A DNA stretch of 64,000 bases. Source: Candidatus Altiarchaeales archaeon (GTDB taxonomy: Archaea > Altiarchaeota > Altiarchaeia > IMC4 > QMZM01). Below are positions 1 to 59,199 of this stretch, in pieces. The stretch is from the NCBI GenBank assembly GCA_963749405.1, contig CAVVMY010000013.1:1-64000 (forward strand). Direction: 5' to 3'. The first letter of the stretch is position 1; the number at the start of each line of letters is the position of its first letter. The position numbers and the translations under genes were made by a program. The notes under the pieces were generated by a model, which was not told where the DNA came from, searched no databases, and saw nothing but the letters and a program-made list of their open reading frames with translations.

Positions 1-3002
<3,002 letters not shown>

Positions 3003-4823: not shown

Positions 4824-5350
4824 CAGACCTCACCCCGGATGTGCTCGACACCAAGGTTATGCAGGATGCGCATGATCTCTTCCTCGTCATCGACACCCTT
4901 GCTGATCTCCACCATCTGGGCAAAGTTCTTGACAAGGCCGCAATTCGGCCCTTCGGGAGTCTCGCTCGGGCAGATCCGGCCCCACTGGGTCGGGTGCAGG
5001 TCACGGGCCTCGAAATGGGGCTGTGAGCGCGAGAGCGGGGAGATCACGCGGCGGAGGTGCGAGAGCACGGCCATGTGGTCGACCCGGTCGAGGAGCTGCG
5101 AGACACCGGTCCTCCCGCCCACCCAGTTGCCGGTAGCAAGCGGGTGGAGCAGGCGTTCGGTGAGCACGTCGGCACGCACTGCGGTCGCGATCGAGAGATC
5201 GCGGTGGCGCATGCTGGCGCGCTCGAGCTGGTACTTGATATCACGGGTGAGCCGGTTGAGCGAGATACGGAAGAGGTCCTCCATCAGGTCGCCCGCAAGT
5301 TTCAGCCTCTTGTTCGAGTAGTGGTCCTTGTCATCGATCCTGCGCCGGCG
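4823..5350 (-). CDS. rpoB2: RNA polymerase subunit B'' C-terminal fragment, 5'-truncated at a sequence breakpoint near 5350
   Basis: ORF 4823..5284 (…GRICPSETPEGPNCGLVKNFAQMVEISKGVDDEEEIMRILHNLGVEHIRGEV). In-frame upstream sequence RRRRIDDKDHYSNKRLKLAGDLMEDLF matches the B'' DDRDHYGNKRLKLAGDL motif and ends at an in-frame stop at ~5351. No B''-like sequence lies beyond that. Confidence 0.8.
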   Translation of the reverse strand, partial: RRRRIDDKDHYSNKRLKLAGDLMEDLFRISLNRLTRDIKYQLERASMRHRDLSIATAVRADVLTERLLHPLATGNWVGGRTGVSQLLDRVDHMAVLSHLRRVISPLSRSQPHFEARDLHPTQWGRICPSETPEGPNCGLVKNFAQMVEISKGVDDEEEIMRILHNLGVEHIRGEV

Positions 5351-5415
5351 TCATAAGCGAACTCGACTCGCAGACAGGGAATGCCCAAGCAGGCTCAACA
5401 AGCGACCTGACGGCG

Positions 5416-6474
5416 TTGAAGACGGTCTTCCAGGACAACGGAATCACTCTCTCAGACTATGCCCGCGTAGAAAAAGGCAGCGGCAAATGGTCGGTCATCG
5501 ACGGGGACAGAAATTACGACATCTACGCAGACGACAAAGGCGGACTAAACGTAATAAACATGGGCTTTGCTTCAGTCTCACTGGCAGAGGACGACTTCAA
5601 AAACGGCCTGCTACAGGTAAAGACCTTCTTCAAAGACCTGCTGATACCCATGTCACCCAATGTAGTAGAAAACAAATCAGCAGCAGACCCGGTCTGTTAC
5701 ACCATGAATATCACATTCAGGAGGCCGTCAATACTATCTGTGGAGGTGTCCCCGAGCGGGTACACGATACCTGCAGGAACACGGGTCACTGCCACCTCTA
5801 AACTCGCACTCTATGACGGAACGCCCCTGCCCAACGAGAAAATATATGTAGACTTGTCAGGGACAAATATATGGGACCTCTCGCCCCAGGGAGTGTACAA
5901 GGACTACATGTTCTCCTACGAGGAGCTAAGCAGCAGCACAGAGCAGCAGGCAAGGCTCAGAGATTATCTTATCAGTCTGGGATATCCAGACATCGCCCAG
6001 GAATTGGACGGAGCTCAATACTCTGCAGACGGCGCAGACAAGATAGAGATAACTACATCAGGTGTTGACCCGACGCTTGAAGCAGTAGACGGCGTATCCC
6101 ACCTCAAGCTCGACAATGGCCAGGACATCATAGTCGGAGTAACCGAAAACTACAACGGCAAACTACTGGTATACGAATCAGAGGAACAGAAAAGCCTCGC
6201 ATATGCGATAACGGACGCAAGCGGCATCGCCAAATACTCATTTATACCTACGGGCAGCACCTCAGTGGGCAATTCCTATCCTGGAGGAAACATATCGTCG
6301 CCTACCCAGGCCAGCGTAGGGATACACACTGTTAGCGTCAAGTCGCCTCTTTTCTCAGGGGAGTTCCTGCTCCTGGCGCTGATACTCGTATTCGGGGTGT
6401 TCTCCTACAAATACTTCGGAAGCAGGAAACTTGACTTCTATTCATGGTGGAGGGACTTCAGAGGCAGAAAATGA
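5416..6474 (+). CDS. Surface/exported protein with C-terminal transmembrane anchor and basic tail (possibly 5'-truncated by the breakpoint)
   Basis: 352-aa ORF ends GEFLLLALILVFGVFSYKYFGSRKLDFYSWWRDFRGRK, a TM plus basic tail of the archaeal C-terminal anchor type. No N-terminal signal peptide is visible and the frame stays open upstream into the rpoB'' remnant. Its stop overlaps the next gene's start (ATGA at 6471-6474). Confidence 0.5.
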   Translation: MKTVFQDNGITLSDYARVEKGSGKWSVIDGDRNYDIYADDKGGLNVINMGFASVSLAEDDFKNGLLQVKTFFKDLLIPMSPNVVENKSAADPVCYTMNITFRRPSILSVEVSPSGYTIPAGTRVTATSKLALYDGTPLPNEKIYVDLSGTNIWDLSPQGVYKDYMFSYEELSSSTEQQARLRDYLISLGYPDIAQELDGAQYSADGADKIEITTSGVDPTLEAVDGVSHLKLDNGQDIIVGVTENYNGKLLVYESEEQKSLAYAITDASGIAKYSFIPTGSTSVGNSYPGGNISSPTQASVGIHTVSVKSPLFSGEFLLLALILVFGVFSYKYFGSRKLDFYSWWRDFRGRK

Positions 6475-7808
6475 AAAACAAAATAATAACATTCCTGGTA
6501 ATAGCATTATTCTTCGCACCCTACATGCCAATACCAACGGTCGCAGCCGCGGACGCGGGAGAGCATGGAAGCACGAACCCCCTGAGCTATTATAACTACC
6601 TGAACAAGGACTGGAACGATTTCAGCGAATTCATGACTGCGGAAAACGCGGAGCATGCAAGACTCATATTGTATCTGCTCGTGCTTGGAATGTATACCTG
6701 GAACGTAACCTCAGACATCCTGCTAAACCTGCAGAACTATGTGCTCCTGAATCCCTCGCCTCTGGAGCCTTCGGTCCTGAACGTGATGAACTTTTTTATT
6801 TTCAACCTGCAGATAGCCTACATACTGGCCATCACAGCAACCGCATTCTACATAATATTCGCATCAACGCACCCCAAGAAACGCGCAAGAGCCAAGGGCA
6901 TGCTGGGAAGACTCATAATCGGAATGCTCCTCGTAAGCATATCCCCCTACCTCATCAATATATTCTTTAATTTCTCCTCAGGGCTCACGGCAACCATACT
7001 GGCCCAGACAGACAGCTCAGTCGCAGCCACGGTCTACACAGACCTGCTATGGAAAACATACTGGCCCAGCGTAGTAATAATAATGGCTCCGATGATAGGA
7101 CACTCGCTGGAATACAACACCCACCATGCGATAGAGCACGGAGTAATGCCCAACCTGGAAACACAATACGCAAAAGAACTCCAGATGGGCACCCCAAGCG
7201 AGCAAAGAGACCTTGCAGTAGAAGACCTGCTGGCCCAGGGGAATCCCGAGGCGATAATATCCGATACGGCAGACCAGATGATGAAAGACCAGCAGAGCCT
7301 CATTAAGAGTAATGCCGAGACAATGGCTCAGTCAACCGTGTGGGGGAAACTTGAGGGTGTACTGGATAGCGGACTTATCAAAATCGAGCCCAAACCTGAG
7401 CAGACCTTTGCATTTCTCATGGCCGAGATAGCGATGATATTTGCCTTGTACGGCTTCCTTGCACTGCGCTTCCTCATGCTCATGATATGGACCATACTGT
7501 TCCCGCTGAGCATATTCCTATCCACCTTCGAGCTCACAAAAGGCGTAGGCAGGAACATGATAGAGCAGACAGTATTCTGGACGATACTGCAGATATTCTA
7601 CGCCGTGAGCATAGACACCATAGCCGTAGGATTCATGATCCTGCCTTCGGGATTCAATTATTTCGGCATTGGCTTGCAGTTCGGGGGATTTGAGGTGTTC
7701 TTCGTCAGTTTCTTTTCCATAGCTGCCGCACTGCTGCTGATGCTGACTCCGATTTTGATGCTCATGCTGTCTCAGAGGTTGACGCAGATGGATTTGAATA
7801 TGGGTTAA
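6471..7808 (+). CDS. Polytopic membrane protein, paralog 1 of 5 (signal peptide, N-terminal ectodomain, ~5-6 TM)
   Basis: MKNKIITFLVIALFFAPYMPIPTVAAADAG signal peptide. Shares motifs with the next four ORFs: IAYILAITATAFYIIFASTHPKKRARAKGMLGRLIIGMLLVSISP and WTILFPLSIFLSTFELTKGVGRNMIEQTVFWTILQIFYAV. Confidence 0.75.
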   Translation: MKNKIITFLVIALFFAPYMPIPTVAAADAGEHGSTNPLSYYNYLNKDWNDFSEFMTAENAEHARLILYLLVLGMYTWNVTSDILLNLQNYVLLNPSPLEPSVLNVMNFFIFNLQIAYILAITATAFYIIFASTHPKKRARAKGMLGRLIIGMLLVSISPYLINIFFNFSSGLTATILAQTDSSVAATVYTDLLWKTYWPSVVIIMAPMIGHSLEYNTHHAIEHGVMPNLETQYAKELQMGTPSEQRDLAVEDLLAQGNPEAIISDTADQMMKDQQSLIKSNAETMAQSTVWGKLEGVLDSGLIKIEPKPEQTFAFLMAEIAMIFALYGFLALRFLMLMIWTILFPLSIFLSTFELTKGVGRNMIEQTVFWTILQIFYAVSIDTIAVGFMILPSGFNYFGIGLQFGGFEVFFVSFFSIAAALLLMLTPILMLMLSQRLTQMDLNMG

Positions 7809-7827
7809 GAGGCATAGACACAAAAAT

Positions 7828-9021
7828 ATGTCAAACAAGAAGATAGTAACCGGGTTTTTGGTATTGGTTGTAGTCTCCTGCACGTTTAGTGCCTATGCTG
7901 CGGAAGAGACAGGGGGTGGAAATATTCTTAGCGGTGTTTTTTCAACCCCGTCTGCGGAAGAGACCTTTTGGTTTGTTAAGAGGAGTTTATATGCCTTCAC
8001 ATCCCTTGACTACAGCAAGGAGGATATGGGGTTCATCGTGAATAATCTGTCAGACCTCATACTGCTGAACCCGGACGCGCAGGGGTCTGAGGTGCAGAAC
8101 GGCCTTGGATTTATCCTGGGGCTTATACAGCCGCTTTATGTCTTATCGATAGCTGCCACCGCCTTTTATCTGATATTCGTGACGGGCTCTCCTTCGGGAA
8201 GGGCGAAGGCTAAGTCTCTTATGAAAGACCTGGTGGTCGGGATGATAATCATATCTCTTTCATCCCTCCTACTGGAAGCACTTCTTAATTTCTCAGCCAC
8301 GGCAACAGATGCGGTTTTAAAACAGACTGACATCTCCGTGGTAACGGATAACCTGCAGATAGTATTCGGCTCTCCGAGTGATAAGTCGGTAACGGACGTA
8401 GCAGTCAACTCCTTGCTGAGCGAGTCATCCATGGGCTTATTGGGCGACTCAACTGCTATGCCGGATTATTTAATGTCCCATTCATGCACCCTGTGCCTTA
8501 TGCATTTGATGGCGACATTTGTTGAAATCGAATTGGGATACTATACCTTCCTTCCGTTCATGCTGATGATATGGGGGCTGGGGGTATACTTTTTCCTGCG
8601 CTTCGCCATGGTGACTCTGTGGCTTATCCTGTTCCCTCTCTCCATACTCCTATACTCTTTTGAGACTACGAAAAGCGTAGGCAGGAACATGCTTGAGCAG
8701 ACGATAATGTGGATATTCATACAGGTATTCAACGCAGTCATCGTGGTGGCAATAGCTCTATGCATAATACAGAGCAAACCCGGTTACATGACCGTTCCGG
8801 CTCTTCCTCAATGGGTATCACAGCCTCTGGCCTCTGGCCTGGTCCAGGCCGTGATGGGGGCAATACCAGTGAGCGCTGTTGGCCCGGCACAGGATGTCAC
8901 TACTCTGATTGCCGGCAAGCTCTCGATGCCGTTGGTAGAGTTCATACCCTTCGTAGGCTGCTTTGTGATGCTTATAGCACCCTTATTCATTATGAGGCTG
9001 TTCAAAGGATTCCTGCCCTGA
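7828..9021 (+). CDS. Polytopic membrane protein, paralog 2 of 5
   Basis: MSNKKIVTGFLVLVVVSCTFSAYAAEE signal peptide. Motifs LYVLSIAATAFYLIFVTGSPSGRAKAKSLMKDLVVGMIIISLSS and WLILFPLSILLYSFETTKSVGRNMLEQTIMWIFIQVFNAV. Confidence 0.75.
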   Translation: MSNKKIVTGFLVLVVVSCTFSAYAAEETGGGNILSGVFSTPSAEETFWFVKRSLYAFTSLDYSKEDMGFIVNNLSDLILLNPDAQGSEVQNGLGFILGLIQPLYVLSIAATAFYLIFVTGSPSGRAKAKSLMKDLVVGMIIISLSSLLLEALLNFSATATDAVLKQTDISVVTDNLQIVFGSPSDKSVTDVAVNSLLSESSMGLLGDSTAMPDYLMSHSCTLCLMHLMATFVEIELGYYTFLPFMLMIWGLGVYFFLRFAMVTLWLILFPLSILLYSFETTKSVGRNMLEQTIMWIFIQVFNAVIVVAIALCIIQSKPGYMTVPALPQWVSQPLASGLVQAVMGAIPVSAVGPAQDVTTLIAGKLSMPLVEFIPFVGCFVMLIAPLFIMRLFKGFLP

Positions 9022-9022
9022 A

Positions 9023-10348
9023 ATGAAAAACAAAAAAATATTCATATTGATGGCCGCAGTCGCGCTAATGATGCTAGCATCAGCCCTGGCAGCGGAAGCC
9101 CAGGATACCTCCGGGGGAACCGGCAGCGGAGGAACACCAGCATTATCTGCGCCTTCAGAAACGCCGGCATTACCCCCCGGCCCAAAACCCCTGGAGCTTC
9201 CACCGGGAGAAAGTCTCCCACAACTCCCATCAGGAGAAAGTTTTCCGCAACTCCCCTCAGGGGAAAAACCGGCTCTTCCGCCGGGCAGCCCACCCGGCTG
9301 GGAAGACCCAATCGCACAAGCGGCTGAAGGAGCTGCCGAAGCAACTGCAAAATATTTCGTCGTCGACGTCGCAGTAAGGCTGATATACCAATACAGCGTA
9401 ATGTATCCCTGGATGCTTACATACGGAGAATCCTTCTCCAACAACTACGAAAAAGCAATACTTGCAAATCCGTCGCTCCTGGACCCCTCATCCGAAGGAT
9501 ACAACCCCCTGATAACAAATGCCATCGCATTCTCCGTAAGAATCATGCTGCCCTTCTACGTCATGGCCATAGTCCTCACAGGCGCTTACATGATATTCAT
9601 TTCCAACTCCCCTGAAGCCCGGGGAGATGCAAAAAACCTCCTTAAAAGGCTAATCATCTCAATGGTCGCATTCTCCATGTCACCCCTCATAGTCGAAACA
9701 ATGCTTGCAACATCCCAAAACATATCATCAGCAATCATAAGCCAAGCCGATCCGACAAACGTAAAGATGGTCCTGGACGGAGGCATATGGGGCTCCTATA
9801 TTATATTCTGCAAACTTGGGATTACAGATCTGGAGATAGCAATCGCTTACTGGACTTCTCTATTTGTCATGGCCTGGCTCCCCTATATGGTGATAGGGAT
9901 GAGGCATATAATGATCACCTTGTTCTGCATGGCATTTCCCGTAGGAATAGCCCTCTACTCCTTTGTCTACTTAAGGAACATAGGCAGAAAGATACTCGAA
10001 CAGACAATAGTCTGGATATACCTGCAGGCATTTATTGCGGTAGCAATAGTCGTCATATCCCTTGGCGCAAGCTACTATTACATACTCCCCCCGGACCAGA
10101 ACCCCAAGCTCACCAACTTCCCAATACCCGCAGTAATGGACAAAGGCGCTCTATCACTTATACAGATGCTCGGCATAAACATCGGAGCAAGCCAGACACC
10201 TGTAACAATACCCGGCTTAGGGGTCGCACCCCCGATGGTATTCGGCATCACCTCAATCCTTTCATACGCAATCGGCGCCATGGCCTACGGACTACTCGTG
10301 GCAGTTCCGTTCATGATGCTGCGGCTGCTGAATAATTTCCTGCCTTAA
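9023..10348 (+). CDS. Polytopic membrane protein, paralog 3 of 5 (with Pro-rich repeat insert after the signal peptide)
   Basis: MKNKKIFILMAAVALMMLASALAAEA signal peptide, then PPGPKPLELPPGESLPQLPSGESFPQLPSGEKPALPPGSPPG. Motifs FYVMAIVLTGAYMIFISNSPEARGDAKNLLKRLIISMVAFSMSP and FCMAFPVGIALYSFVYLRNIGRKILEQTIVWIYLQAFIAV. Start lies 2 nt after the previous stop. Confidence 0.75.
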   Translation: MKNKKIFILMAAVALMMLASALAAEAQDTSGGTGSGGTPALSAPSETPALPPGPKPLELPPGESLPQLPSGESFPQLPSGEKPALPPGSPPGWEDPIAQAAEGAAEATAKYFVVDVAVRLIYQYSVMYPWMLTYGESFSNNYEKAILANPSLLDPSSEGYNPLITNAIAFSVRIMLPFYVMAIVLTGAYMIFISNSPEARGDAKNLLKRLIISMVAFSMSPLIVETMLATSQNISSAIISQADPTNVKMVLDGGIWGSYIIFCKLGITDLEIAIAYWTSLFVMAWLPYMVIGMRHIMITLFCMAFPVGIALYSFVYLRNIGRKILEQTIVWIYLQAFIAVAIVVISLGASYYYILPPDQNPKLTNFPIPAVMDKGALSLIQMLGINIGASQTPVTIPGLGVAPPMVFGITSILSYAIGAMAYGLLVAVPFMMLRLLNNFLP

Positions 10349-10354
10349 GAAAGA

Positions 10355-11410
10355 ATGGAAAAACAAAAACAAAAAATCATAGCATTAATGATAATCGGAA
10401 TGCTGATACTCCTGCCCTGGGTATACGCAGAAGAAGACGACGAGGACACGGAAGACGAGGGAGGGTCATTATCACAGATAGCCGGCGCAGAAACAGTCAA
10501 GCTGTTAGCCAAGGCATGGATAGACGGCGCAGCAGGAGACCTATACGACGTCCTGGCAAAGATCACAGGCCAGCTGCGGGAATACATAACGGCAAATCCG
10601 CCCATGAACGACATAAAGCGGATACAGGCCTTCTTCATAGGACTCATGCAGCCCTTCTTCATACTTGGAATAGTTCTCAGTTCCGCATATCTCCTGCTGT
10701 ACTCGGAATCCCCGAGGGGGAGAGCCAAGTCCAAAGCAGCCCTTGTAAGACTCATATACGCACTCATACTTGTCTCCATATCCCCCCTGATAATATGGCT
10801 GCTTCTGACCTTTTCTTCGAGCCTGACAAATGCGATACTGGACAACACCGACCTCTATTACGCAGGGCAGGTAATATATGTCGGAGCCCATTATATGTTC
10901 AATATGTTCTTCTGGCTAACCATGATACATCGTACCGGAGGAGTAGAACTACTACTGCTCTGGGAAACATTCATGCTAATCATAAACTTTGTAATAGCCA
11001 TGAGATACCTCCTCGTAATACTCTGGTGCGTCATGTTCCCTGTAAGCCTTCTCTTGTTCTCTTTCACACCTACAAAAACCATAGGAAAAAAATTCCTACA
11101 CCAGACATTCCTATGGACATTCGTACAAGTAGGCTGGGCCCTCGCAATCATGCTCATATGCGCATCAGTCAAAGGAATGGACGCAGTAATGCCCGGCTAC
11201 CCCATCGGAAAGATCGGCATCACCTGCATATTCCTGTTCCTTGCAACCCCAAGGGTGGTATTCGGGCTGATGGACTGGCTGAGCCTCGGCGTAGAGGTAG
11301 TGGAGATAGTAAACGCAGCGCCGCTGTCGATGGGCGCGCTCACATTGGACGAGATGAAGGTCGAAAGAGAGGTCATCCTGGAAGAGCCCTCGCTGGAGGG
11401 CGTATTATAA
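10355..11410 (+). CDS. Polytopic membrane protein, paralog 4 of 5
   Basis: MEKQKQKIIALMIIGMLILLPWVYAEEDDEDTEDEGG signal peptide. Motifs FFILGIVLSSAYLLLYSESPRGRAKSKAALVRLIYALILVSISP and WCVMFPVSLLLFSFTPTKTIGKKFLHQTFLWTFVQVGWAL. Confidence 0.75.
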   Translation: MEKQKQKIIALMIIGMLILLPWVYAEEDDEDTEDEGGSLSQIAGAETVKLLAKAWIDGAAGDLYDVLAKITGQLREYITANPPMNDIKRIQAFFIGLMQPFFILGIVLSSAYLLLYSESPRGRAKSKAALVRLIYALILVSISPLIIWLLLTFSSSLTNAILDNTDLYYAGQVIYVGAHYMFNMFFWLTMIHRTGGVELLLLWETFMLIINFVIAMRYLLVILWCVMFPVSLLLFSFTPTKTIGKKFLHQTFLWTFVQVGWALAIMLICASVKGMDAVMPGYPIGKIGITCIFLFLATPRVVFGLMDWLSLGVEVVEIVNAAPLSMGALTLDEMKVEREVILEEPSLEGVL

Positions 11411-11414
11411 GACC

Positions 11415-12677
11415 ATGAAAAAAACAATAAAATACTCCGGCCTAAAGGCCGGAGTATTGCTCTCAAAAGCGGCAGAGATAGGTATGGATAAACCCCTGCC
11501 TCAAAGGCAGGGGTATTCTGCCGCTTTTGTGATAAACAAAAAAACAAGAAAAAAAATCCTGATATCAGCATCAGTAATCCTCGTCATAGCATTGATCATC
11601 AATACTTCGGCGATAATCCCCGCAGCCTTGGCCTTGGCTGCCGAGTACTTCACCGAAAGATACCAAGCGGCATTGCCCGGCGCTGTAGCGATGGAAGCAG
11701 GCCACTGGCTTTCTGCTGCAACTATCCGCATAATATTTGCGTACTTCGTATACTGGGGGTTCTTTTCAAAGTACGCGGACTTATGCAACCATTTGCCTGA
11801 GCTGATACTAATGAATCCCAAGATTATGATAGCAGATGATCGCGGCAACTACTACGGAAATCCGCCCATGGAAGAGCTTGTCGATTCGTTCATCCGCATA
11901 ACCCAGCCGTTTTACGTCTTTGCCATAATGCTGGTCGCATTCTACCTCCTGTTCGTCTCAGGTTCGCCTCTGGGACGGGCCAGGGCAAAGTCCAGCCTGA
12001 TAAGACTGGTCCTCTCAATGGGCGTTATAGTGCTAACCATACCCATCATCCAGCTCTGCCTGGACTTCTCGGAAGTGCTTTCAGGGAGCATCCTGAACAT
12101 GCAGGACATAGCACCCGGCATAGCAGTCCTCCAGGAAGCAGTCTACGGGCTATGGCAGAACTATTTCACCGCAATCGTCTTCAACTACTGGAACTCGGTA
12201 TATCTGCTGATGTTTTCCGCAGTGATGTTCTTCCTGCCATTCGCAATAATTGCGCTGAGATATTTTATGATAATATACTTCACCGCACTCTTCCCGCTGA
12301 CAGTGCTATTCTACGCCTTCTACTTCACCAGAAACATGGGCGGACACATATTCAGAGAAACATTCCGATGGATATTCATCCAGCCGCTCTGGGCCATGAT
12401 ACTCGTGGCAATATCTGCGGCCGCAGTCTCGATGCCCTTCATAAACACCGACGCCACAGCACGCATGGGCTTCGGCCTTGCAGGATTCATAGTGCTTACA
12501 ATAGCGCCCCTCATAGTGGTAAAAGTCATGGACTGGCTCGCAATGCTCATGATAATGCTGACGGCAATAGAATTCCCGGGCATGCACGGCGTAGTAGGCA
12601 TGATAGACGAATTACAAGTAGAAGGTCCGGAAACACAGGAAATAACCCCGCCGCCGCCCATAAGGCCCAGGGCCTAA
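11415..12677 (+). CDS. Polytopic membrane protein, paralog 5 of 5 (true start uncertain; possibly GTG ~11529 downstream of a structured element)
   Basis: Motifs FYVFAIMLVAFYLLFVSGSPLGRARAKSSLIRLVLSMGVIVLTIP and FTALFPLTVLFYAFYFTRNMGGHIFRETFRWIFIQPLWAM. The first ~38 codons of the ORF overlap nested hairpins that recur in a non-coding context at 59028-59174. Confidence 0.7.
   Translation: MKKTIKYSGLKAGVLLSKAAEIGMDKPLPQRQGYSAAFVINKKTRKKILISASVILVIALIINTSAIIPAALALAAEYFTERYQAALPGAVAMEAGHWLSAATIRIIFAYFVYWGFFSKYADLCNHLPELILMNPKIMIADDRGNYYGNPPMEELVDSFIRITQPFYVFAIMLVAFYLLFVSGSPLGRARAKSSLIRLVLSMGVIVLTIPIIQLCLDFSEVLSGSILNMQDIAPGIAVLQEAVYGLWQNYFTAIVFNYWNSVYLLMFSAVMFFLPFAIIALRYFMIIYFTALFPLTVLFYAFYFTRNMGGHIFRETFRWIFIQPLWAMILVAISAAAVSMPFINTDATARMGFGLAGFIVLTIAPLIVVKVMDWLAMLMIMLTAIEFPGMHGVVGMIDELQVEGPETQEITPPPPIRPRA
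11432..11528 (+). ncRNA. Structured intergenic element, copy A (terminal hairpin ATACTCCGGC-loop-GCCGGAGTAT plus outer stem AAAAGCGGCAGA…TCTGCCGCTTTT enclosing inner hairpin CCCCTGCC-TCAAA-GGCAGGGG)
   Basis: Read directly. Same architecture and near-identical first hairpin recur at 59028-59174. Confidence 0.45.
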
Positions 12678-12735
12678 AGTATAATAAATGCAGTATATAT
12701 TCCAGAATATAGTATAATTATGTAAATTAAAAGCA

Positions 12736-14025
12736 ATGGCAGCAATACCCATACAGGAAGAATCCCAGGCCACAATCGAACGCGATAGAGAACAGGAAAA
12801 ATTAATAAGAGTGCAGGGAGGATTCTCCTTAGACCCTCAGACCCTGGCAGTGATAATAGACGCAGCCCTGATAATCTTCTTCCTATTCTTCTACCCACCC
12901 AACCAGCCAGTCTCTTTCCCCTACGGAATCAGCATCCAGCCAAACGTCCTCATACCCCTGCTGACAGTGCTTCTGATAGGCCTGATAATAAACAAATCCA
13001 TAGTCAACTTCATGGAATACGAACGAGGCGTCGTATTCAAATGGGGCAAATTCAACAGGATAGCAGGCCCAGGCTGGGAAATAATATTCCCCCTGATGGA
13101 GCGATACATCAAAGTCGACCTGCGGCTGGAAGTAATAAGCCTGCCGCCCCACGAAGTAGTCACAAAAGACAAGGTACGCTTCCTCGTATCCCCTGAGATA
13201 TTCATGTACGTCTCCAACCCAAAAGACGCCATACTAAACGTGCAGAACTACAAGAAAGCAACAATACAATACGTAACAAGCGCCCTCACCCACACACTGG
13301 GCGACTCGACCTCAGACTACATAGTCGCGCACATGAACGAAATATCCGACACCCTCGGACACTCAGTAGAACACATAACAAACACGCCCGGAAAAGAATG
13401 GGGCATCGTCGTACCCAGAGTCAAACTGGCATTCATCCGCTTCCCGGACGAGGTACAGTCCGCAATGCACAAAAAAGTAGCAAGCGAACAACTGAAACTC
13501 GCAGCCCATGAAAAAGCCGAGGCAATAAAAGTGGAAATAGACGCAATAAGAGAAGCAGGAGGAAAACTCACAGACCCGGCCCTGACATACATGTACCTCG
13601 AATCCCTCGACAAAGTAGCCAAAGGAAAAGCCACAAAAATAGTCCTACCCCTCGAAATATCCAAGATGGCAGAAACCATCACCAGAAGAACCAGCGGAGC
13701 AATAGGAAGCGGAAAACAGGAATTAAACCTGCCACCCGACGTAGTCCAAAGATATGCAGAGATCGCAGACAACTACGACAAAAGGCTCAAGGACATAGAA
13801 GGCAAACTCACAGCCTCCGAAGGAAGAGAGGAGCGCAACCGGATGCTAAGAGACGAATACAGGAGAAAGGAGTTGGAAGACAAAACCGGAAAACCAGAAG
13901 ACTCCGCGGAAAAAGAAGGACCGGAAAATACGGAAAAACCGCAGACAAGCCGGAAAGAAGACAGCGAATTAAAAGAATACAAAGACCGGATACGCGAGAT
14001 AAAGAAGAGAGTAGGCATAGACTAA
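12736..14025 (+). CDS. SPFH/band-7 (stomatin/prohibitin/HflK-C-like) membrane protein with long charged coiled-coil C-terminal tail
   Basis: N-terminal TM segments, then FKWGKFNRIAGPGWEIIFPLMERYIKVDLRLEVISLPPHEVVTKDKVRFLVSPEIFMYVSNPKDAILNVQNYKKATIQYVTSALTHTLGD (SPFH core). E/K/R-rich tail to 429 aa. Confidence 0.8.
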   Translation: MAAIPIQEESQATIERDREQEKLIRVQGGFSLDPQTLAVIIDAALIIFFLFFYPPNQPVSFPYGISIQPNVLIPLLTVLLIGLIINKSIVNFMEYERGVVFKWGKFNRIAGPGWEIIFPLMERYIKVDLRLEVISLPPHEVVTKDKVRFLVSPEIFMYVSNPKDAILNVQNYKKATIQYVTSALTHTLGDSTSDYIVAHMNEISDTLGHSVEHITNTPGKEWGIVVPRVKLAFIRFPDEVQSAMHKKVASEQLKLAAHEKAEAIKVEIDAIREAGGKLTDPALTYMYLESLDKVAKGKATKIVLPLEISKMAETITRRTSGAIGSGKQELNLPPDVVQRYAEIADNYDKRLKDIEGKLTASEGREERNRMLRDEYRRKELEDKTGKPEDSAEKEGPENTEKPQTSRKEDSELKEYKDRIREIKKRVGID

Positions 14026-20570: not shown

Positions 20571-21215
20571 ATGAAAACAGTCCTCCAAGTATCCCTCAAC
20601 TCCCTAAACCTGCAGGAAGCACTAAGCATAGCAGAAAAAGCCTCAAACGAGGGAATCACATGGATAGAAGCCGCAAGCACCCTCATAAAAGCAGCAGGAC
20701 TCGCCTCCGTAACAGAAATAAGAAAAAGATACCCCAACGCAACAATAACCGCGGACATGAAGATGATCCGCTCGCCTGAAGAAGTAGCCGCAGCCGCAGA
20801 TGCCGGGGCGAACATAGTGATGTTCTATTCCGAAAGCGACGACGACCTGATACGCAGGTACGTTGAGAAAGCCAAGGAAAAAAACATCGAATTAATGGCT
20901 GACATATACGCCAGCGTTTTCCCTGCAAGAGACGCAAAACGATTCCAAGACCTCGGCGTAAACTACCTCTTCGTAAGGTCCCGGGACCTCAAAGCAGTCG
21001 CATCCGCAGTACAGATACCCGTGGCAGTCCCCATAGGAAGAGATGCGGAAGCTGCGAAAAGAGCTTGTCGAAAACGGGGCAAAGATACTAAACATAAGCG
21101 ATTTCCCAGACACGGAAAGAATAAACGGCATATCAGAAAAAATACCGGAACTGCGGGAAAGCCAAAAACAACCAACCGCGGCCAAGCCGGAAACCATAGC
21201 TGCTACATCCAATAA
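20571..21215 (+). CDS. HPS/KGPDC/OMPDC-family TIM-barrel protein (3-hexulose-6-phosphate synthase-like), divergent; 3' end uncertain (~21100-21215)
   Basis: MKTVLQVSLNSLNLQEALSIAEKAS…ITADMKMIRS…GANIVMFY… aligns to HPS MKLQVALDLVNLEEAL…ADLKTMDAG. Conserved Asp positions read N/S/R here. The ORF tail (RKRGKDTKHKRF…) looks like out-of-frame read-through overlapping the next gene. Confidence 0.5.
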   Translation: MKTVLQVSLNSLNLQEALSIAEKASNEGITWIEAASTLIKAAGLASVTEIRKRYPNATITADMKMIRSPEEVAAAADAGANIVMFYSESDDDLIRRYVEKAKEKNIELMADIYASVFPARDAKRFQDLGVNYLFVRSRDLKAVASAVQIPVAVPIGRDAEAAKRACRKRGKDTKHKRFPRHGKNKRHIRKNTGTAGKPKTTNRGQAGNHSCYIQ

Positions 21216-24200
21216 TTCTACGCCGCAGGCTACCAACACAAGCCAGACGCATGTCCTTTCCGAATTCGAAAGGCTCAACAAGCTGTTCTCGGACCTTGAA
21301 GAAAGACGAAAACTCGAAGAAAACCGAAGGATACTCCTTGAAAAAAAGCTGGAAGACAAAGAAAAAGAATACCAGCAGATGCTGGAAACAGAGCGAAGCA
21401 AGGTAGACGCCGAAATAGCAAAGATCGAAACAGAAAAAGAAGACATCCGCAGATACCGTGAAAAACTTGAAAAAGCCTCCGAAGAAACCGAAAAGCAACG
21501 GATGCGCATAATCGAGGAATGGGGCAGGATAAAACAGGCAGAGATATCATTCGAAGACACCCAAAAGAAAAAGCTCGAAGAATACAATTCCAGAAAAGAG
21601 GAAATATGGAAAAAATGGGAAGACGAGCAGAAAAAGCGATGGATGAACGCCTCAGCAGAGATAGAAGAAGCAAGACAGAAGCTTGCAGCACGCTGGGCCG
21701 ACGTAGAAGACTACTCCGAAAGAGCAGAAAATGCGAAAAAAGAGATAGAAGAACAAAGAGCACTGATCACACAAGACAAGGCGGAAGCCGAAAAGAAACT
21801 GCAGGAAGCGCTGAACCTGCACAAACTGCACGAGAGCAATGCAAAACTCCTGGAAGAAGACAAAAGAGAAACCGAGGAAAAGAAAAAATACATAGAAGAA
21901 CAAAAAAAGTACGTAGACGAGCAAAACGCATCATTCGAAAAAAGATGGGCAGACGCTAAAGCGCAACTGGAAAACAGCCTGGAAGAGCGGGAAAAAAGCC
22001 TGGAAGCCCAAAAACTCATACTAGCCGAGGAAAAACTCCAGATAAAGTCAGAAAAACAAGATGCCGAGAGACTCAAACTGGACGTGAGTGCAGAACTGGA
22101 AAAAGCCCGGAAGCGAGAAGAAGAGGCTGAAAAATTACACAAGAAAATCGCAGAAGAACAAAAAGAAGCAGAGGAGCGAATAGCAAAAGAGCAAAAGAGA
22201 CTAGACGAAAAAGAGAAACAGATAGAAGCAAGAGAAACAGAAGCCGCCAAATCCGCAGACCTAATAGCGAAAGCTGCGAGCATAAAAGAAGAAAAGCTCA
22301 AGGCAGAGGAGGCGGCTGCAAAAGCTGCCCAGAAACTAAAGGAAGCATCCGAAGCCGAGGAAAGAATACGAAAAACAGAAAGAAAAATCGACGAACAGCA
22401 GAGAACAAGAAAACAGGAGCTGCAAGAACTGGAAAAAGAGCGCTGGATGCTCAACGACGAACTCAAAAAGATGGAGAACAGTTGGGCAACGCTCTCAGAG
22501 ATTGAGAAAAAACAGGAAGAAGAAAAGAGAATACTCGACGACATGCGCGCAGAAATAGAGGAACAGAGAAAGAGCATAGAAGAAAAATTCGAAAAACTGG
22601 AGAAAAAAGAAAAAGAACTAAAGGATGCGCAAGAAGCATCCGAAAAAAACCAGCAATACCACCTGGAAGAATACAAAAAGAAAGCAGACGAAGGCTGGGA
22701 ACACTGGGAAGACGAACAGAAAAACAAATGGAAAGACGAATACGCAAAGATTGAAGACGAGAAAAAGAAGCTCGCAGACGAAAAAACAGAACTAAAAGCA
22801 AGAATCGCCCAGATGGAACTGGAATCCTGGAAAACATCCGAAGAATCCCGGAAAATAGAAAAAAGACTGGAAGAAGCAACAGAAAAAGAACGCATAACAG
22901 AAGAAAACCTCAGAAAGATCACAGAAAAAGAGCAGAGCCAAAGAGGCCTCATAGAAGAAATAGAGAAAGAACGCTGGAGGATACACGACGAGCAGCAGAA
23001 GGCGGAAAAAAGCGGGGCGCAGATCCTGGAAATAGAGAAAAGATACGAAAACGACAAAGAATCGATAGCCAGGGACAAGGCATTCATAGAGGAACAGAAA
23101 AAGAAACTCGAAACAGACGAACAGAAACTGAAGGAAGAATGCAGAAAACTCCGGGACGATGCAAACTCGCAATTTTCCGGCCTGCAGGAAGACACGGTCG
23201 TCATAAGCGCTAAATGGGTGGAGATAAAAGACGCGGAAAAAAAGCTGGAAGAAGAAAGAAAAAACGCAGAACAGGAAAGAAAAGACCTGGACGACATCAA
23301 AAAGAGGATCGAAGAAGAAGCCTGCAAGCTGGAAGAGCGGATGATTGACGCAGCCGGGACCGAGGCAAAATACGCAGAGCAGCAGGCGGCGCTCGAGGGG
23401 ATAAGCAGAAAAGAGCAGGAGATAAGAGACTACGAAAAGAAGAAGGAAGAAGAAGCAGCCGCAAGAAAAGAGGAGACTGCGGAAATAGACCGCGAAAGGC
23501 GGAAGCTGAGCGATGAATTAAAAGAGGTAGAATCCAAGCGGGCGCAGATATCGGAAGCCGAAAAAGAACTGGAAGAAGAAAGACGCAGAACGGAAGACGA
23601 AAGAAAGGCTCTCGAAGGAGAAAAACAGAAAAGGAAGCAGGAAACAGAAAACGAAGACTCCGCCAGCATAGAAGAAAGAAAACAGGAACTCATCGGATTA
23701 TCAAATAAGATAGAAGAACAGCAGAAGATAAGAAAAGAGGAAGTAAGAGCCATAGAAATGGAGCGCTGGAGGCTCATAGACGAAGCAAAGAAGATAGAGC
23801 TGCACCAAAACAACATAGCCCGATCAGAGCAGGCATTCACAGAAGAAAAAGCCCGGATTGAAAAAGAGAGAACTGAACTTGCGGAAGAGAAGAAAAAAGT
23901 AAGCGGGCAAAGCGACCTATTGGAGAAAAAACTGGCAGAAATAAAGCTCGCAGAAGAGGAGATCACCAGGAAAAGAGCGTCCCAGGCGGAAGAATTAAAG
24001 AAAAAAGAAGAAGAGCTAATGCAACTGCACGGACAGACTCTTGAAGAAAAAACCAGAAGAAAAGAAGAAGCAGAAAGCATAGAAAAAGAGAGCTGGAAAC
24101 TAATCGACGCACAGAAGAAGCTGGAACTGCGCGAGAAACAAATAAGGGAAGCGGAGAAAAGATTCCTTGAAGAAAAAGAACTGATGGAGAAATCCAAGCA

Positions 24201-24631
24201 GAACCTTTCCGAACAGAAGAGAAAAATAGACGAGGAAAAAAGCCGCATGGAAAAAAAGGCCTTGGAACTAAAAGAACTGGAGCAGCAGGCCGCGCAAAAG
24301 GAAAAACTGGATGCCTACCGGAAAAAAAGAGAAGAAGAACTGGAATCCTCAGGCCTTAAAACCTCGGCAGAGCAATCCGAAGACAAGTTCCGCAAGGAGA
24401 GAAAGGATCCTGGAAATAGAGCGCTGGAGGCTCATGGACGAAGCAAAGAAGATAGAGAATCGGTGGGCGCAGATAAAGGAGGCAGAGAAAAAGCGCATGG
24501 GAGAAGAACAGGAACCTGTAGACGAGGTTCAGAACTCAACGGATAAGAAGCAGGACGCATTCAAGAAGACTGCAAGCCCGGTGGACGACCTGAAGATCCT
24601 TGAAGAAGAGCACTCCAAAAAGAAGACCTGA
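21043..24631 (+). CDS. Giant repetitive coiled-coil protein (~1190 aa, E/K/R-rich) with frameshift near ~24400
   Basis: Repeated modules EKERWMLNDELKKME, ERWRIHDEQQKAEK, EMERWRLIDEAKKIE, EKESWKLIDAQKKLE, plus EIWKKWEDEQKKRW and EGWEHWEDEQKNKWKDE. The EIERWRLMDEAKKIENRWAQIKEAEKK repeat continues in ORF 24311..24631 in another frame. No TM or NTPase motifs seen. Confidence 0.65.
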
Positions 24632-31550: not shown

Positions 31551-32115
31551 ATTTATTTTTATCGTAATACCCCGCTGCTTGCAGCGGGGTCGTTCCCCTT
31601 GCAAGTAAATAGGTTTTGTGTGTAAATAATTGTGTGGATTTAGGTAGGGCTTCGCATTGTGTGTATAAGATTAGGTATCATATGGTTTTGTGTGTGAAGT
31701 ATCGCAAGGGGCTGATTAGGGGGGAGTTGGAATCGTATCTCTGTGAAGTTTTGAAGGGTATTGGCGATAGGTATGAGTTTGAGTTGGATGCCGTTGGTTG
31801 CGACGGTAATCACGTGCACGCCTTTGTTGGGGCTGCTCCCAGGTATGCCCCTGCCAGGGTGATGCAGGTGATGAAAAGCGTATCTGCCCGCCTGCTCTTT
31901 GAGCGTTTTCCAGAGGTTAGGAAAACGCTTTGGGGAGCAGAGTTTTGGAGTGATGGCGGATACGTAGGAACTGTTGGAGACGGCGTAACAGAGGACATAA
32001 TCAGAAGATATGTTGAGCAGCAAGGCTCCCCTGAAGAGAAAGAAGATTACGCTCAAATGAAGCTTACCACGTTTACGTCGTAAATACCCCGCAGCTTGCT
32101 GCGGGGATATTTATT
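31551..32115 (+). mobile_element. IS200/IS605-family insertion sequence, copy 1 (tnpA only, ~565 bp, subterminal hairpins)
   Basis: Identical to 34496..35060 over 565 bp. Left hairpin CCCCGCTGCTTGCAGCGGGG, right hairpin CCCCGCAGCTTGCTGCGGGG. Encodes a Y1 HUH transposase. Confidence 0.85.
31616..32083 (+). CDS. tnpA: IS200/IS605 TnpA (Y1 HUH transposase)
   Basis: YHMVLCVKYRKGLIRGELESYLCEVL…GNHVHAFVGAAPRYAPARVMQVMKSVSARLLFERFPEVRKTLWGAEFWSDGGYVGTVG, with HxH and catalytic Y motifs. 155 aa. Confidence 0.85.
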   Translation: MCVNNCVDLGRASHCVYKIRYHMVLCVKYRKGLIRGELESYLCEVLKGIGDRYEFELDAVGCDGNHVHAFVGAAPRYAPARVMQVMKSVSARLLFERFPEVRKTLWGAEFWSDGGYVGTVGDGVTEDIIRRYVEQQGSPEEKEDYAQMKLTTFTS

Positions 32116-32372: not shown

Positions 32373-32575
32373 GAATATCTTCGAGTCTGAAGGAAAAAGC
32401 TGGAAATACCCACTTTTAAGTATTAAATCCAAGTATATATCCGACGTAGGTGCATTTTTAGAAAAATATTGCTTTTTTCTTTGCAAGTTTTCTAACAGAC
32501 ACCTGCGATATATAAAAGAGGTAAATAAACGAAAATGGCATATGGAGACAACAAAGGCGGCTACGGAGACGAGAG

Positions 32576-32698
32576 ATGCATAAAGTAACCTGCTCCGACT
32601 GCGGAAAAGAAACGGAAGTTCCGTTCAAGCCGTCAGGTGACAGACCTGTATATTGCAAGGAATGTTACCAGAAACACAGACCACCGAGAAGATACTAA
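32576..32698 (+). CDS. Small zinc-ribbon protein (40 aa; below ORF-track cutoff)
   Basis: MHKVTCSDCGKETEVPFKPSGDRPVYCKECYQKHRPPRRY: CxxC-x17-CxxC, basic C-terminus. ATG at 32576, TAA at 32696. Confidence 0.45.
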   Translation: MHKVTCSDCGKETEVPFKPSGDRPVYCKECYQKHRPPRRY

Positions 32699-34495: not shown

Positions 34496-35060
34496 ATTTA
34501 TTTTTATCGTAATACCCCGCTGCTTGCAGCGGGGTCGTTCCCCTTGCAAGTAAATAGGTTTTGTGTGTAAATAATTGTGTGGATTTAGGTAGGGCTTCGC
34601 ATTGTGTGTATAAGATTAGGTATCATATGGTTTTGTGTGTGAAGTATCGCAAGGGGCTGATTAGGGGGGAGTTGGAATCGTATCTCTGTGAAGTTTTGAA
34701 GGGTATTGGCGATAGGTATGAGTTTGAGTTGGATGCCGTTGGTTGCGACGGTAATCACGTGCACGCCTTTGTTGGGGCTGCTCCCAGGTATGCCCCTGCC
34801 AGGGTGATGCAGGTGATGAAAAGCGTATCTGCCCGCCTGCTCTTTGAGCGTTTTCCAGAGGTTAGGAAAACGCTTTGGGGAGCAGAGTTTTGGAGTGATG
34901 GCGGATACGTAGGAACTGTTGGAGACGGCGTAACAGAGGACATAATCAGAAGATATGTTGAGCAGCAAGGCTCCCCTGAAGAGAAAGAAGATTACGCTCA
35001 AATGAAGCTTACCACGTTTACGTCGTAAATACCCCGCAGCTTGCTGCGGGGATATTTATT
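34496..35060 (+). mobile_element. IS200/IS605-family insertion sequence, copy 2 (identical to copy 1)
   Basis: 100% identical 565 bp. Inserted inside the surface-protein gene. Same orientation as copy 1, 2380 bp downstream. Confidence 0.85.
34561..35028 (+). CDS. tnpA: IS200/IS605 TnpA (Y1 HUH transposase), second copy
   Basis: Protein identical to 31616..32083. Confidence 0.85.
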   Translation: MCVNNCVDLGRASHCVYKIRYHMVLCVKYRKGLIRGELESYLCEVLKGIGDRYEFELDAVGCDGNHVHAFVGAAPRYAPARVMQVMKSVSARLLFERFPEVRKTLWGAEFWSDGGYVGTVGDGVTEDIIRRYVEQQGSPEEKEDYAQMKLTTFTS

Positions 35061-36936: not shown

Positions 36937-37011
36937 GGGCCCGTGGCTCAGCTTGGTTAGAGCACCTGACTGATAATCAGGGGGTCTGGAGTTCAAATCT
37001 CCACGGGCCCA
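36937..37011 (+). tRNA. tRNA-Ile (anticodon GAT)
   Basis: GGGCCCGTGGCTCAGCTTGGTTAGAGCACCTGACTGATAATCAGGGGGTCTGGAGTTCAAATCTCCACGGGCCCA. Anticodon loop CTGATAA. Confidence 0.85.
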
Positions 37012-37102
37012 AAAGCTTTTTCTTTCTTAAGAAGAAATAAAAAGCTTTTCAAGCAAAAAGAAAGAACGTGCCATCTTCGATGGCACTGACGGTTTCAAAC
37101 GA

Positions 37103-53522: not shown

Positions 53523-53523
53523 A

Positions 53524-58465: not shown

Positions 58466-59041
58466 ATGAAAAAACTGAAAGCCTGGATGCTCAACAGGAA
58501 AGCATCTACTCCGAAAAGCAAGCCCGACGAGATAATGAACAGCCTGGCATTGCAGCCGGGACAGAATATCGCAGACATCGGAACAGGCGGAGGCTATTTT
58601 TCACTCCGATTTGCCGAAGCAGTAGAAAACCAGGGAATCGTATACGCAGTGGACACCGACAAGGCTTTTCTCGATATGCTGACAGATAATGCAAGAAAAA
58701 AAGGCGCAAACAATATAAAAACAGTTCTAGCAGCCTCAATAAAGTCGTCCATACCACAGCAAAGCCTGGACTACGTTTTCCTGAGAAACGCATACCACCA
58801 CCTCCAAAACAGGATACAATACTTCAAAGAACTCTCAACCCTCCTCAAACCCACAGGAAAAATCGCAATCATAGAATACACGAAAAACGGCAAAAGAAGG
58901 CCCAAGGGCCACTACGTTCCAAAAGAAAAAATAATAGAAGAGATGAACGAAGCCGGATACAAAGAAGAAAAAAGCTACGACTACCTGCCAGAGCAATCCT
59001 TTACAATCTACGCCAAAAAGAAATCAGATACTCCGGCTTGA
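58466..59041 (+). CDS. Class I SAM-dependent methyltransferase
   Basis: IADIGTGGGYFSLRFAEAV…VYAVDTD motif I / post-I. Confidence 0.7.
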   Translation: MKKLKAWMLNRKASTPKSKPDEIMNSLALQPGQNIADIGTGGGYFSLRFAEAVENQGIVYAVDTDKAFLDMLTDNARKKGANNIKTVLAASIKSSIPQQSLDYVFLRNAYHHLQNRIQYFKELSTLLKPTGKIAIIEYTKNGKRRPKGHYVPKEKIIEEMNEAGYKEEKSYDYLPEQSFTIYAKKKSDTPA

Positions 59042-59174
59042 AAGCCGGAGTATGTGCCCAAAGGGCATGCCAGTAGGCACTTAAAAATCGGCAACGATAC
59101 GTCATTCTGTCCCCCAAGGGGACATGCCGCGCACGGCATCTGCGGGCTAAAGCCCGCAGTATCTGCCGATTTTT
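59028..59174 (+). ncRNA. Structured intergenic element, copy B (ATACTCCGGC-TTGAAA-GCCGGAGTAT; outer stem AAAATCGGCAA…TATCTGCCGATTTT enclosing hairpins GTCCCCCAAGGGGAC, ATGCCGCGCACGGCAT, CTGCGGGCTAAAGCCCGCAG)
   Basis: Read directly. First hairpin overlaps the last codons of the SAM-MTase gene. Followed by a T-run. Confidence 0.45.
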
Positions 59175-59199
59175 AATAAAAAAACTTTAAATCTGCAAC

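Follow-up and report, generated by a model that had tools for sequence, protein, structure and literature searches.

What kind of element are the two clusters of perfect hairpins in a 64,000-nucleotide stretch (hereafter the window) of Candidatus Altiarchaeales archaeon contig CAVVMY010000013.1, one in an array of paralogous genes and the other at the end of a methyltransferase gene? The initial annotation had seen in them a genome-specific repeated structured element of the repetitive extragenic palindrome (REP) or miniature inverted-repeat transposable element (MITE) kind, acting as a terminator, an insulator or a small RNA. Our analysis indicates that both loci are copies of a non-autonomous IS200/IS605-type single-strand ('peel-and-paste') transposable element, similar to MITEs and to palindrome-associated transposable elements (PATEs), a reading to which we assign a probability of about 0.8. 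It is supported by an empty insertion site, the lack of a target-site duplication, complementarity between internal guides and flanking targets, and a geometry held in common with an IS200-type insertion sequence (IS) resident in the window.

Two copies of a hairpin element

Both clusters are present in the window where the initial annotation had placed them. The hairpin common to the two, H1 (ATACTCCGGC-loop-GCCGGAGTAT), occurs exactly twice in the 64 kb, at 11432-11457 (copy 1) and 59028-59053 (copy 2), with no occurrence expected from 100 shuffles; a pattern search and a short-word BLAST with 54 family members (see below) found no third copy in the window. An inverted-repeat scan of the window recovered the H1 stems, paired at 13 of 13 positions in copy 1 and 14 of 15 in copy 2, together with a longer-range outer stem in each (11461-11476/11517-11532, 16 nt, 94% in copy 1; 59081-59093/59164-59176, 13 nt, 100% in copy 2), all of them among the strongest inverted repeats of the window. 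Folded as single-stranded DNA, copy 1 reaches -39.1 kcal/mol against a shuffle mean of -11.4, and copy 2 -52.2 kcal/mol against -22.1; z is -10.3 in both cases and none of 200 shuffles was as stable, bearing out the folding that had been proposed. The two copies are indeed homologous and differ in their inner hairpins. Comparison of insertion sites sets their true extents at 11427-11531 (105 nt) and 59023-59175 (153 nt).

In the orientation of the initial annotation, an element consists of A-T-[A/C]-A-A, H1, a short linker, one arm of the outer stem, a set of hairpin modules, T-A-T-N, the other arm and G-T-A. The top (active-type) strand of both copies is the minus strand of the window, and the order on it is a T-N-A-T target, a left linker of 17-18 nt (TACAAA...CAG), a 4-nt guide N-A-T-A, and a left-end subterminal hairpin (IPL), which is a perfect 8-bp hairpin with a loop of ~4 nt; the modules follow, then a segment complementary to the left linker (forming the outer stem), a second guide N-A-T-A, H1, a 4-nt linker and T-N-A-T. 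IPL (for example CTGCGGCC-N4-GGCCGCAG) and H1 (CTCCGGCC-N4-GGCCGGAG) are thus alike in structure, stand in the same orientation on one strand and are each preceded by N-A-T-A. No inverted repeat is formed by the outermost sequences, TACAAA... and ...T-N-A-T. The number of perfect hairpin modules per element ranges from 0 to ~10, some being nested in the loops of others.

Copy 1 is inserted in frame in a membrane protein gene

An ortholog search with the paralog 5 product returned the window's own 420-aa protein (P0241 in public databases) and 13 orthologs of 370-390 aa, most of which begin MK.I.KKTRKR; the closest (83% identity) begins MKTINKKTRKRLLISAS. Exact look-ups of paralog 4 and of the 420-aa paralog 5 gave no record, and that of the neighbouring reductase led back to the same genome with the element in place. 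The contig that encodes this closest ortholog, L168, is syntenic with window 5349-13020, spanning the whole paralog array, at 78-82% nucleotide identity. At the position of copy 1 it reads ...ATGAAAACAATAAACAAAAAAAC..., where the window reads ACAATAAA[...]GTGATAAACAAAAAAAC; over a wider junction the two are ...TAAgacATGAAAACAATAAACAAAAAAACAAG... and ATGAAAAAAACAATAAA[ATACTCC...CTTTTGTG]ATAAACAAAAAAAC. Since the syntenic contig lacks the 105 bp, copy 1 is a 105-bp insertion after codon 5 of paralog 5. The empty site holds one ATAAA, against two in the filled site, one of which is the element end that is fixed within the subfamily. The features of this locus are as follows.

11415..12677, plus strand: paralog 5 gene with an in-frame 35-codon insertion; ancestral N-terminus MKKTI|NKKTRKK...
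11427..11531, minus strand: element copy 1, short form, type I, 105 nt; empty site in L168; DNA fold z = -10.3
11427..11430, minus strand: right cleavage tetranucleotide (CR), top strand TTAT, 4 nt past the H1 core stem, as predicted from the family logo and the IS608 code
11432..11457, unstranded: H1 of copy 1, which is the subterminal hairpin of the right end (IPR); 4-nt loop on an 8-bp core stem CTCCGGCC/GGCCGGAG, lengthened by ATA/TAT
11455-11458, top strand: right guide (GR) of copy 1, AATA
11464..11529, unstranded: outer stem of copy 1 (arms 11464-11476 and 11517-11529), in which the left-end linker pairs with the segment beside H1; encloses IPL
11493..11513, unstranded: IPL of copy 1, CCCCTGCC-tcaaa-GGCAGGGG
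11514..11517, minus strand: left guide (GL) of copy 1, plus TATT, top AATA, directly 5' of the IPL foot on the top strand
11532..11535, minus strand: retained target, or left cleavage site (CL), of copy 1, plus ATAA, top TTAT; outside the element and present once in the L168 empty site

The insert is in frame and contains no stop codon, so that the open reading frame (ORF) of paralog 5 runs through it. The residues KYSGL...AAFVI, 35 in number, are encoded by the element and account for all but five of the 40 residues at the start of the annotated protein; the annotation of the public 420-aa product is thereby affected, as it holds 35 transposon-encoded residues. The initial annotation had placed the hairpins between paralogs 4 and 5 and had called the N-terminus of paralog 5 suspect. 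The first description needs correction, as copy 1 is not simply intergenic and sits within paralog 5; of the second, the suspicion about the residues was justified, while the ATG at 11415 is the genuine start, since the orthologs begin MKTINKKTRKR... Translation from this ATG would yield peptides from KYSGLKAGVLLSKAAEIGMDKPLPQRQGYSAAFVI, or it may restart at the GTG at 11529. The very stable 105 nt and the 35 added codons could lower or otherwise alter the expression of paralog 5 relative to the other paralogs. Nothing shows selection for such an effect, and the suggestion that the element sets differential expression within the array is not upheld; the effects are by-products of insertion.

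Palindromic repeats inserted in frame in protein genes, adding residues and leaving the ORF intact, are familiar from the Rickettsia palindromic elements (RPEs). Copy 1 is reminiscent of these in adding 35 residues in frame, whereas its sequence is unrelated, its host belongs to another domain and its presumed mobilisation mechanism is another. The in-frame insertion was seen for one copy only and may be due to chance (~6%).

The array itself (window 5416-12677) is conserved and comprises five paralogous multi-pass membrane proteins without a Pfam match; a very large secreted protein precedes it, and L168 1-11152 shows synteny with it. Distant homologs, as well as the nearby ORF at 60075-60764, match TrbC/VirB2 and T4SS_pilin models, which hints at a type-IV-secretion- or pilus-like apparatus.

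Copy 2 supplies a stop codon to a methyltransferase gene

Copy 2 lies between convergent genes. Deleting 59023-59175 from the window restores GCC AAA AAG AAA TAA, and 11 homologous methyltransferases end exactly there (...KK*). In the window, the methyltransferase is longer by the five residues SDTPA, and its reading frame closes with a TGA in the H1 loop, so both the five C-terminal residues and the stop codon are donated by the element. The statement in the initial annotation that this copy lies downstream of a stop codon is therefore too simple, as the H1 loop itself provides the present stop of the upstream gene. Judging from the removal of the junction, copy 2 would have split the ancestral TAA stop. 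The locus is made up as follows.

59023..59175, minus strand: element copy 2, long form, type II, 153 nt; homologous to the MAG copies L007 and L004; DNA fold z = -10.3
59028..59053, unstranded: H1 (IPR) of copy 2; loop TGA 59039-59041 is the stop of the methyltransferase gene 58466-59041
59054..59080, unstranded: optional module made of a pair of short hairpins that overlap (gtgccc aaa gggcat / tgcc agta ggca); some family members have it and others do not
59081..59175, unstranded: outer stem of copy 2 (59081-59093 with 59164-59175), enclosing hairpins 59108-59124 and 59125-59138 and IPL 59140-59159
59160..59163, minus strand: GL of copy 2, plus TATC, top GATA
59176..59179, minus strand: retained target of copy 2, plus ATAA, top TTAT; TAA at 59177-59179 is the putative ancestral methyltransferase stop, from junction removal

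The relatives L007 and L148 have TATTC, that is, the guide AATA, at the position of the left guide; copy 2 is without one of these Ts, which leaves a G.T mismatch with its target. Copy 2 is probably a decayed copy and may no longer be mobile.

The element belongs to a family in related archaea

A scan for the H1 pattern in one genome per species gave 39 loci, most of them unrelated bacterial terminator-type hairpins. Four of the 39 came from two archaeal metagenome-assembled genomes (MAGs), 'Euryarchaeota archaeon AlinenSedimentsD2_bin-1345' and 'Candidatus Altiarchaeia archaeon MFD12011'. Three of these are complete homologous elements, of the long form (L004 and L007) or the short form (L012), and the fourth MAG locus, L009, is broken by a contig end. 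L007 and L004, which stand in unrelated contexts, match copy 2 at 88% and 82% identity, respectively, and no alignment is obtained for the flanks. In metagenome contigs the H1 pattern was found at no fewer than 120 loci, which were filtered by reading their flanks; about half were chance terminator-like hairpins of bacteria and were set aside. The matches listed contain 61 complete elements, or 54 distinct sequences, mostly from one set of sediment metagenomes, and the counts given below for 54 copies in the gene map and the mismatch comparison stand within the matches listed. A short-word BLAST added ~20 further copies with a differing H1 in the same family loci, some with compensated stem changes (CCAGCC/GGCTGG, CCTGCC/GGCAGG) and others with extra hairpins in the H1 loop. 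Complete copies are 42 to 376 nt long and have their ends in common. The search for further copies that the initial annotation had called for was thus positive, and dozens of homologous copies in related archaea support its description of a genome-specific, REP- or MITE-like structured repeat.

A crude gene map of the 54 copies places them mostly at gene ends, with 15 between convergent genes, 12 and 7 between co-directional genes (the two orientations) and 5 between divergent ones, and no fixed orientation of the element relative to transcription. At least six copies other than copy 2 give an upstream ORF its stop; these ORFs run 19 nt into the element and end in the H1 loop. A scan of viral contigs for H1 gave five matches, all unrelated bacterial-type hairpins, and no family copy. 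All-against-all comparison of the family loci revealed no further empty sites, as expected when every locus had been selected for H1. The host of the family is a poorly known archaeal lineage, and the conserved H1 offers a marker for binning or strain-typing these Altiarchaeia.

Some family loci deserve separate mention. L063 1-779 and L145 126-901 are alike in the left flank and H1 (97.6%) and differ in element body and right flank, reflecting either recombination between copies or mis-assembly at the repeat. A small zinc-ribbon gene (MAYGE...CxxC...CxxC) at window 32537-32698 is orthologous to L012 2693-2853; a short-form element stands just upstream of it in L012 and none in the window, and the upstream genes differ too. 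In L004, the element adjoins a large secreted cysteine-rich protein.

Guides within the element match their flanking targets

Copy 1 is flanked on both sides by ATAAA and most copies have AAT at both junctions, reminiscent of a target duplication. Across the family, the pentamer beside H1 is fixed per subfamily (ATAAA or ATCAA), while the pentamer at the other flank is A-T-N-A-N and usually different, with a family-wide flank logo of A-T-N-A. Because the two pentamers differ systematically, the likeness of the flanks is no target duplication. The variable flank base instead follows a base inside the element: the base after 'TAT' past the last inner hairpin is Watson-Crick complementary to it at 47 of 54 independent sites, a number that none of 100,000 permutations reached (maximum 33). 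Three guide states account for most sites, namely TATT with ATAA (18 sites, T:A), TATC with ATGA (16, C:G) and TATG with ATCA (9, G:C).

Read on the minus strand, a guide N-A-T-A at the foot of a hairpin faces a target T-N'-A-T, and guide position 1 pairs with target position -3 (G1 with C-3). The A at guide position 2 has a T at C-4 in 48 of 54 copies, the A at guide position 4 faces a T at C-1 in 54 of 54, and C-2 is A in 54 of 54. At the H1 end the rule holds as well, with AATA/TTAT in the short subfamily (type I) and CATA/TGAT in the long one (type II). This is the register of IS608, in which the guide AAAG pairs through A+16:T-3 and A+17:T-4, i.e. G1:C-3 and G2:C-4, and in which the cleavage site is read by the guide rather than the protein, such that altering the left guide leads to a predictable new target (PMC5934647, PMC3201880). 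As far as sequences can tell, the complementarity in our elements is the IS608 guide/cleavage-site code; by this code, GL of copy 1 pairs with the target TTAT at 11532-11535. The cleavage sites predicted in this way lie 17-18 nt 5' of the left hairpin, outside the element, and 8 nt 3' of the right hairpin, inside it. With more than 50 independent natural insertions and three guide states with matching targets, the IS608 code can be read directly from genomes.

Stem changes fit DNA palindromes

In an alignment of 19 short members, 94.6% of the cells in stem positions are paired, compared with 27-43% when the partners are slid. Both sides have changed at 12 pairs (40 cells), and covarying pairs include five of the eight of IPL and six of the outer stem; H1 is invariant in these 19 copies, with compensated variants elsewhere in the family. 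G-U accounts for ~1% of paired cells, and the loops occur in both orientations (TAAA/TTTA, TGAA/TTCA). The near-absence of G-U pairs together with both loop orientations indicates DNA palindromes rather than a selected RNA fold. Comparison of G.T with A.C mismatches, tried as a test for an RNA strand, was uninformative, since the 24 single mismatches in the 54 copies include one G.T and two A.C, a result that itself argues against RNA. The hairpin modules all bear a flanking GTA[CT] on the same side and do not alternate in orientation.

Extra perfect hairpins were also found inside H1's own loop (L052 1186-1395, L128 2954-3163 and L078 6238-6426) and, likewise, inside the loop of the left-end hairpin (L042, L105 and L129). 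In many cases the new stems in these loops are built from the former loop sequence and its inverse, as template switching might have produced them.

A resident IS200 has the same right-end geometry

The window carries two copies of an IS that encodes its own transposase.

31557..32114, plus strand: IS200-type IS, first copy; TnpA ORF 31616-32083, a Y1 HUH transposase (Pfam Y1_Tnp, E = 2.5e-34)
34502..35059, plus strand: IS200-type IS, second copy, 100% identical to the first

The stretch common to both is 31551-32115 and 34496-35060, 2.9 kb apart, and their perfect identity suggests recent activity. Four insertion sites were compared, including L166 and L167, and an exact-TnpA look-up gave two ~1.1 kb contigs that helped to fix the ends and no parent element. 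The ends are TTAT|TTTTATCG... and ...ATATTTAT|, so that insertion is 3' of (T)TTAT, with GL = GR = AATA and CL = CR = TTAT, and cleavage distances of 13 nt on the left and 8 nt on the right. The right end has the layout guide(4)-stem(8)-loop(4)-stem(8)-linker(4)-site(4), and the short-form element has the same layout and spacing, the same guide AATA and the same site TTAT. The resident IS200, or a relative of it, would thus be the obvious candidate for moving the elements in trans.

With IS608 and the resident IS200, our elements have in common that their subterminal hairpins occupy a single strand, that a 4-nt guide on the 5' side of every hairpin foot pairs with a cleavage tetranucleotide in the IS608 register, that the left cleavage site lies outside the element and is kept as the target, that the right site lies inside it 3' of the hairpin, and that both terminal inverted repeats and target duplication are lacking. 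They differ in having no transposase gene, a long-range stem between the left linker and the segment at the right hairpin, and up to ~10 extra modules. Relative to IS608, the left site is at 17-18 nt rather than 19 and the right at 8 rather than 10, and the hairpins are perfect where those of IS608 are imperfect.

PATEs, IS200/IS605-derived MITEs first named in Haloquadratum walsbyi (PMC3119063), are likewise short, gene-less, multi-copy and archaeal and have IS200/IS605-type hairpin ends. Unlike these, the ends of our elements are not identical in sequence to those of the only autonomous IS seen here, hairpin accretion and an outer stem are absent from the PATE descriptions consulted, and the host belongs to Altiarchaeia.

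Proposed mechanism and points that weigh against it

By analogy with these systems, a Y1 HUH transposase provided in trans would bind the two hairpins on single-stranded DNA and cleave where each guide base-pairs with its tetranucleotide. The element would be excised as a single-stranded circle and would reinsert 3' of a T-N-A-T picked by the left guide. The acting transposase and the continued mobility of the copies are inferred. The best reading is that of a selfish element whose local effects in the window are by-products of insertion.

Several observations count against assigning the elements to IS200/IS605. Seven of the 54 sites violate the guide rule, window copy 2 with its G.T pair among them, and the subfamilies are clonal, leaving few independent guide states (three left, two right). 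Neither an outer stem of long range nor arrays of additional hairpins belong to the described features of IS200/IS605 ends or PATEs. The stem sequences of the resident IS200 (CCCCGCAG) and of the element (CTCCGGCC) differ, and cross-mobilisation is unproven. The search brought up no autonomous element bearing H1-type hairpins, and the window TnpA, compared by tblastn with 367 kb of family loci, matched no Y1 transposase other than the window's own copies.

Alternative explanations

The closest competitor to the IS200/IS605 reading is a system like REPs and bacterial interspersed mosaic elements (BIMEs), whereby archaeal palindromes would be spread by a domesticated single-copy Y1 transposase of the REP-associated tyrosine transposase (RAYT) kind and may have been co-opted by the host. 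Such a system, which includes the REPINs of bacteria, is matched by the abundance of perfect hairpins with a fixed tetranucleotide beside each, by the mosaic, modular make-up, by the enrichment at gene ends and between convergent genes and by a mechanism that is likewise Y1/HUH-based; bacterial REPs, too, are reported to give ORFs their stop codons (PMC3733652). We nevertheless consider it unlikely, as our elements have distinct left and right ends with the asymmetry of IS200/IS605 and a retained target, in place of lone or inverted REP pairs, and their modules point one way instead of alternating as in BIMEs. No RAYT-like gene was found among the window ORFs scanned or, by tblastn, in the 367 kb of family loci, and the portions of the REP/RAYT literature consulted describe bacterial genomes, with no archaeal example. 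A classical MITE, with terminal inverted repeats, a DDE transposase and a short target-site duplication (AAT or ATAAA), is scarcely credible. It would account for the flanking AAT and ATAAA motifs noted above and for a 13-16-bp inverted repeat, the outer stem; this repeat is not terminal, with H1 lying outside it at one end, and the terminal-inverted-repeat model was rejected on that ground. A duplication of AAT or ATAAA was rejected as well, because the flanks differ systematically: the pentamers disagree within copies (e.g. ATAAA with ATCA(N), ATCAA with AT[A/G]A(N)), and the variable flank base tracks the internal guide base, not the other flank.

A functional structured RNA could be a small RNA gene, could stabilise mRNA 3' ends or could act as a terminator or insulator that sets differential expression within the paralog array; a terminator, an insulator or a small RNA was what the initial annotation had favoured. 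The very stable folds, the compensatory changes that maintain the stems and the frequent position at gene 3' ends would all suit it, and H1 with TTTTATTGTTTT, a T-rich tail, fits a terminator-like consensus on the minus strand, whereas copy 1 is surrounded by plus-strand genes. In archaea oligo-T suffices for termination, which speaks against a terminator hairpin. As a primary nature, an RNA role is in our view improbable: the elements stand in either orientation to neighbouring genes, stems are essentially Watson-Crick-only without a bias of G.T over A.C, loops are flipped between copies, the element is missing at the orthologous site of the close relative L168, copy 1 is embedded in coding sequence, the element is free of promoter-like AT-rich boxes, and the ends carry transposon signals. 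Rfam 15 gave three tRNAs only for the whole window at gathering thresholds, and permissive scans of both loci (E-value 10) gave sub-threshold chance matches only, the best at 26 bits against a gathering threshold of 55. More improbable still is a PATE in which the multi-hairpin body still provides a TnpB or IscB nuclease with the scaffold of its guide RNA (omega-RNA). The body does end at the transposon right end, and PATEs derived from tnpB-bearing IS605 are reported to retain omega-RNA regions (PMC10055086); against this, no tnpB- or iscB-like ORF was present among 30 window ORFs scanned against Pfam, neither window element has an Rfam match at E-value 10, the body varies from 0 to ~10 hairpins, and its stems are without G-U pairs.

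A tentative variant with a long-range clamp

The elements, as IS200/IS605 derivatives akin to PATEs and REP-like repeats, are of a kind already known and not a new kind of system; by literature search, the family and its presence in this host lineage appear undescribed. What goes beyond the descriptions consulted is the long-range stem between the left end and the right hairpin segment and the accretion of many hairpin modules. These features might point to an undescribed IS200/IS605 variant, a self-synapsing single-strand MITE whose body grows by module accretion, as an archaeal counterpart of BIMEs, and whose subfamilies have retargeted themselves, a possibility that we put forward as speculative. 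In the single-stranded form, the 13-16-bp long-range helix, which covaries from one subfamily to the next, would fasten the left end to the stretch next to the right-end hairpin. Perfect modules resembling a guide plus hairpin would be added to the body, some of them inside hairpin loops, and single guide-base changes would have retargeted subfamilies to T-T-A-T, T-C-A-T or T-G-A-T. IS200/IS605-type elements can, at any rate, build large hairpin mosaics.

Other features of the window

Among the window genes are those for an archaeal RNA polymerase, methenyl-H4MPT cyclohydrolase and a formyltransferase, and the named protein relatives belong to Altiarchaeia or Altiarchaeota. The gene for RNA polymerase subunit A' (Rpb1-like; 365-3002, minus strand) is broken: the frame shifts near 1965, and a TAG stands in frame at 1790-1792 (IEPG*TVERQ) within conserved domain 2. 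Faulty assembly, a pseudogene and recoding are all conceivable causes. The 1167-aa ORF at 21043-24546 consists of numerous divergent internal repeats in which E, K and W abound (ERW..DE motifs), and it probably encodes a long coiled-coil protein. At 52146-54465, a protein with an Mrr-type restriction endonuclease domain is followed by an N6/N4 DNA methylase, likely forming a restriction-modification pair. Large secreted proteins with repeated cysteine-rich modules and threonine-rich linkers are encoded at 61457-63100 (minus strand) and in L004 1140-4385. Finally, an 18-nt A/T-rich inverted repeat, 94% complementary, stands at 37011-37049, directly after tRNA-Ile (36937-37011).

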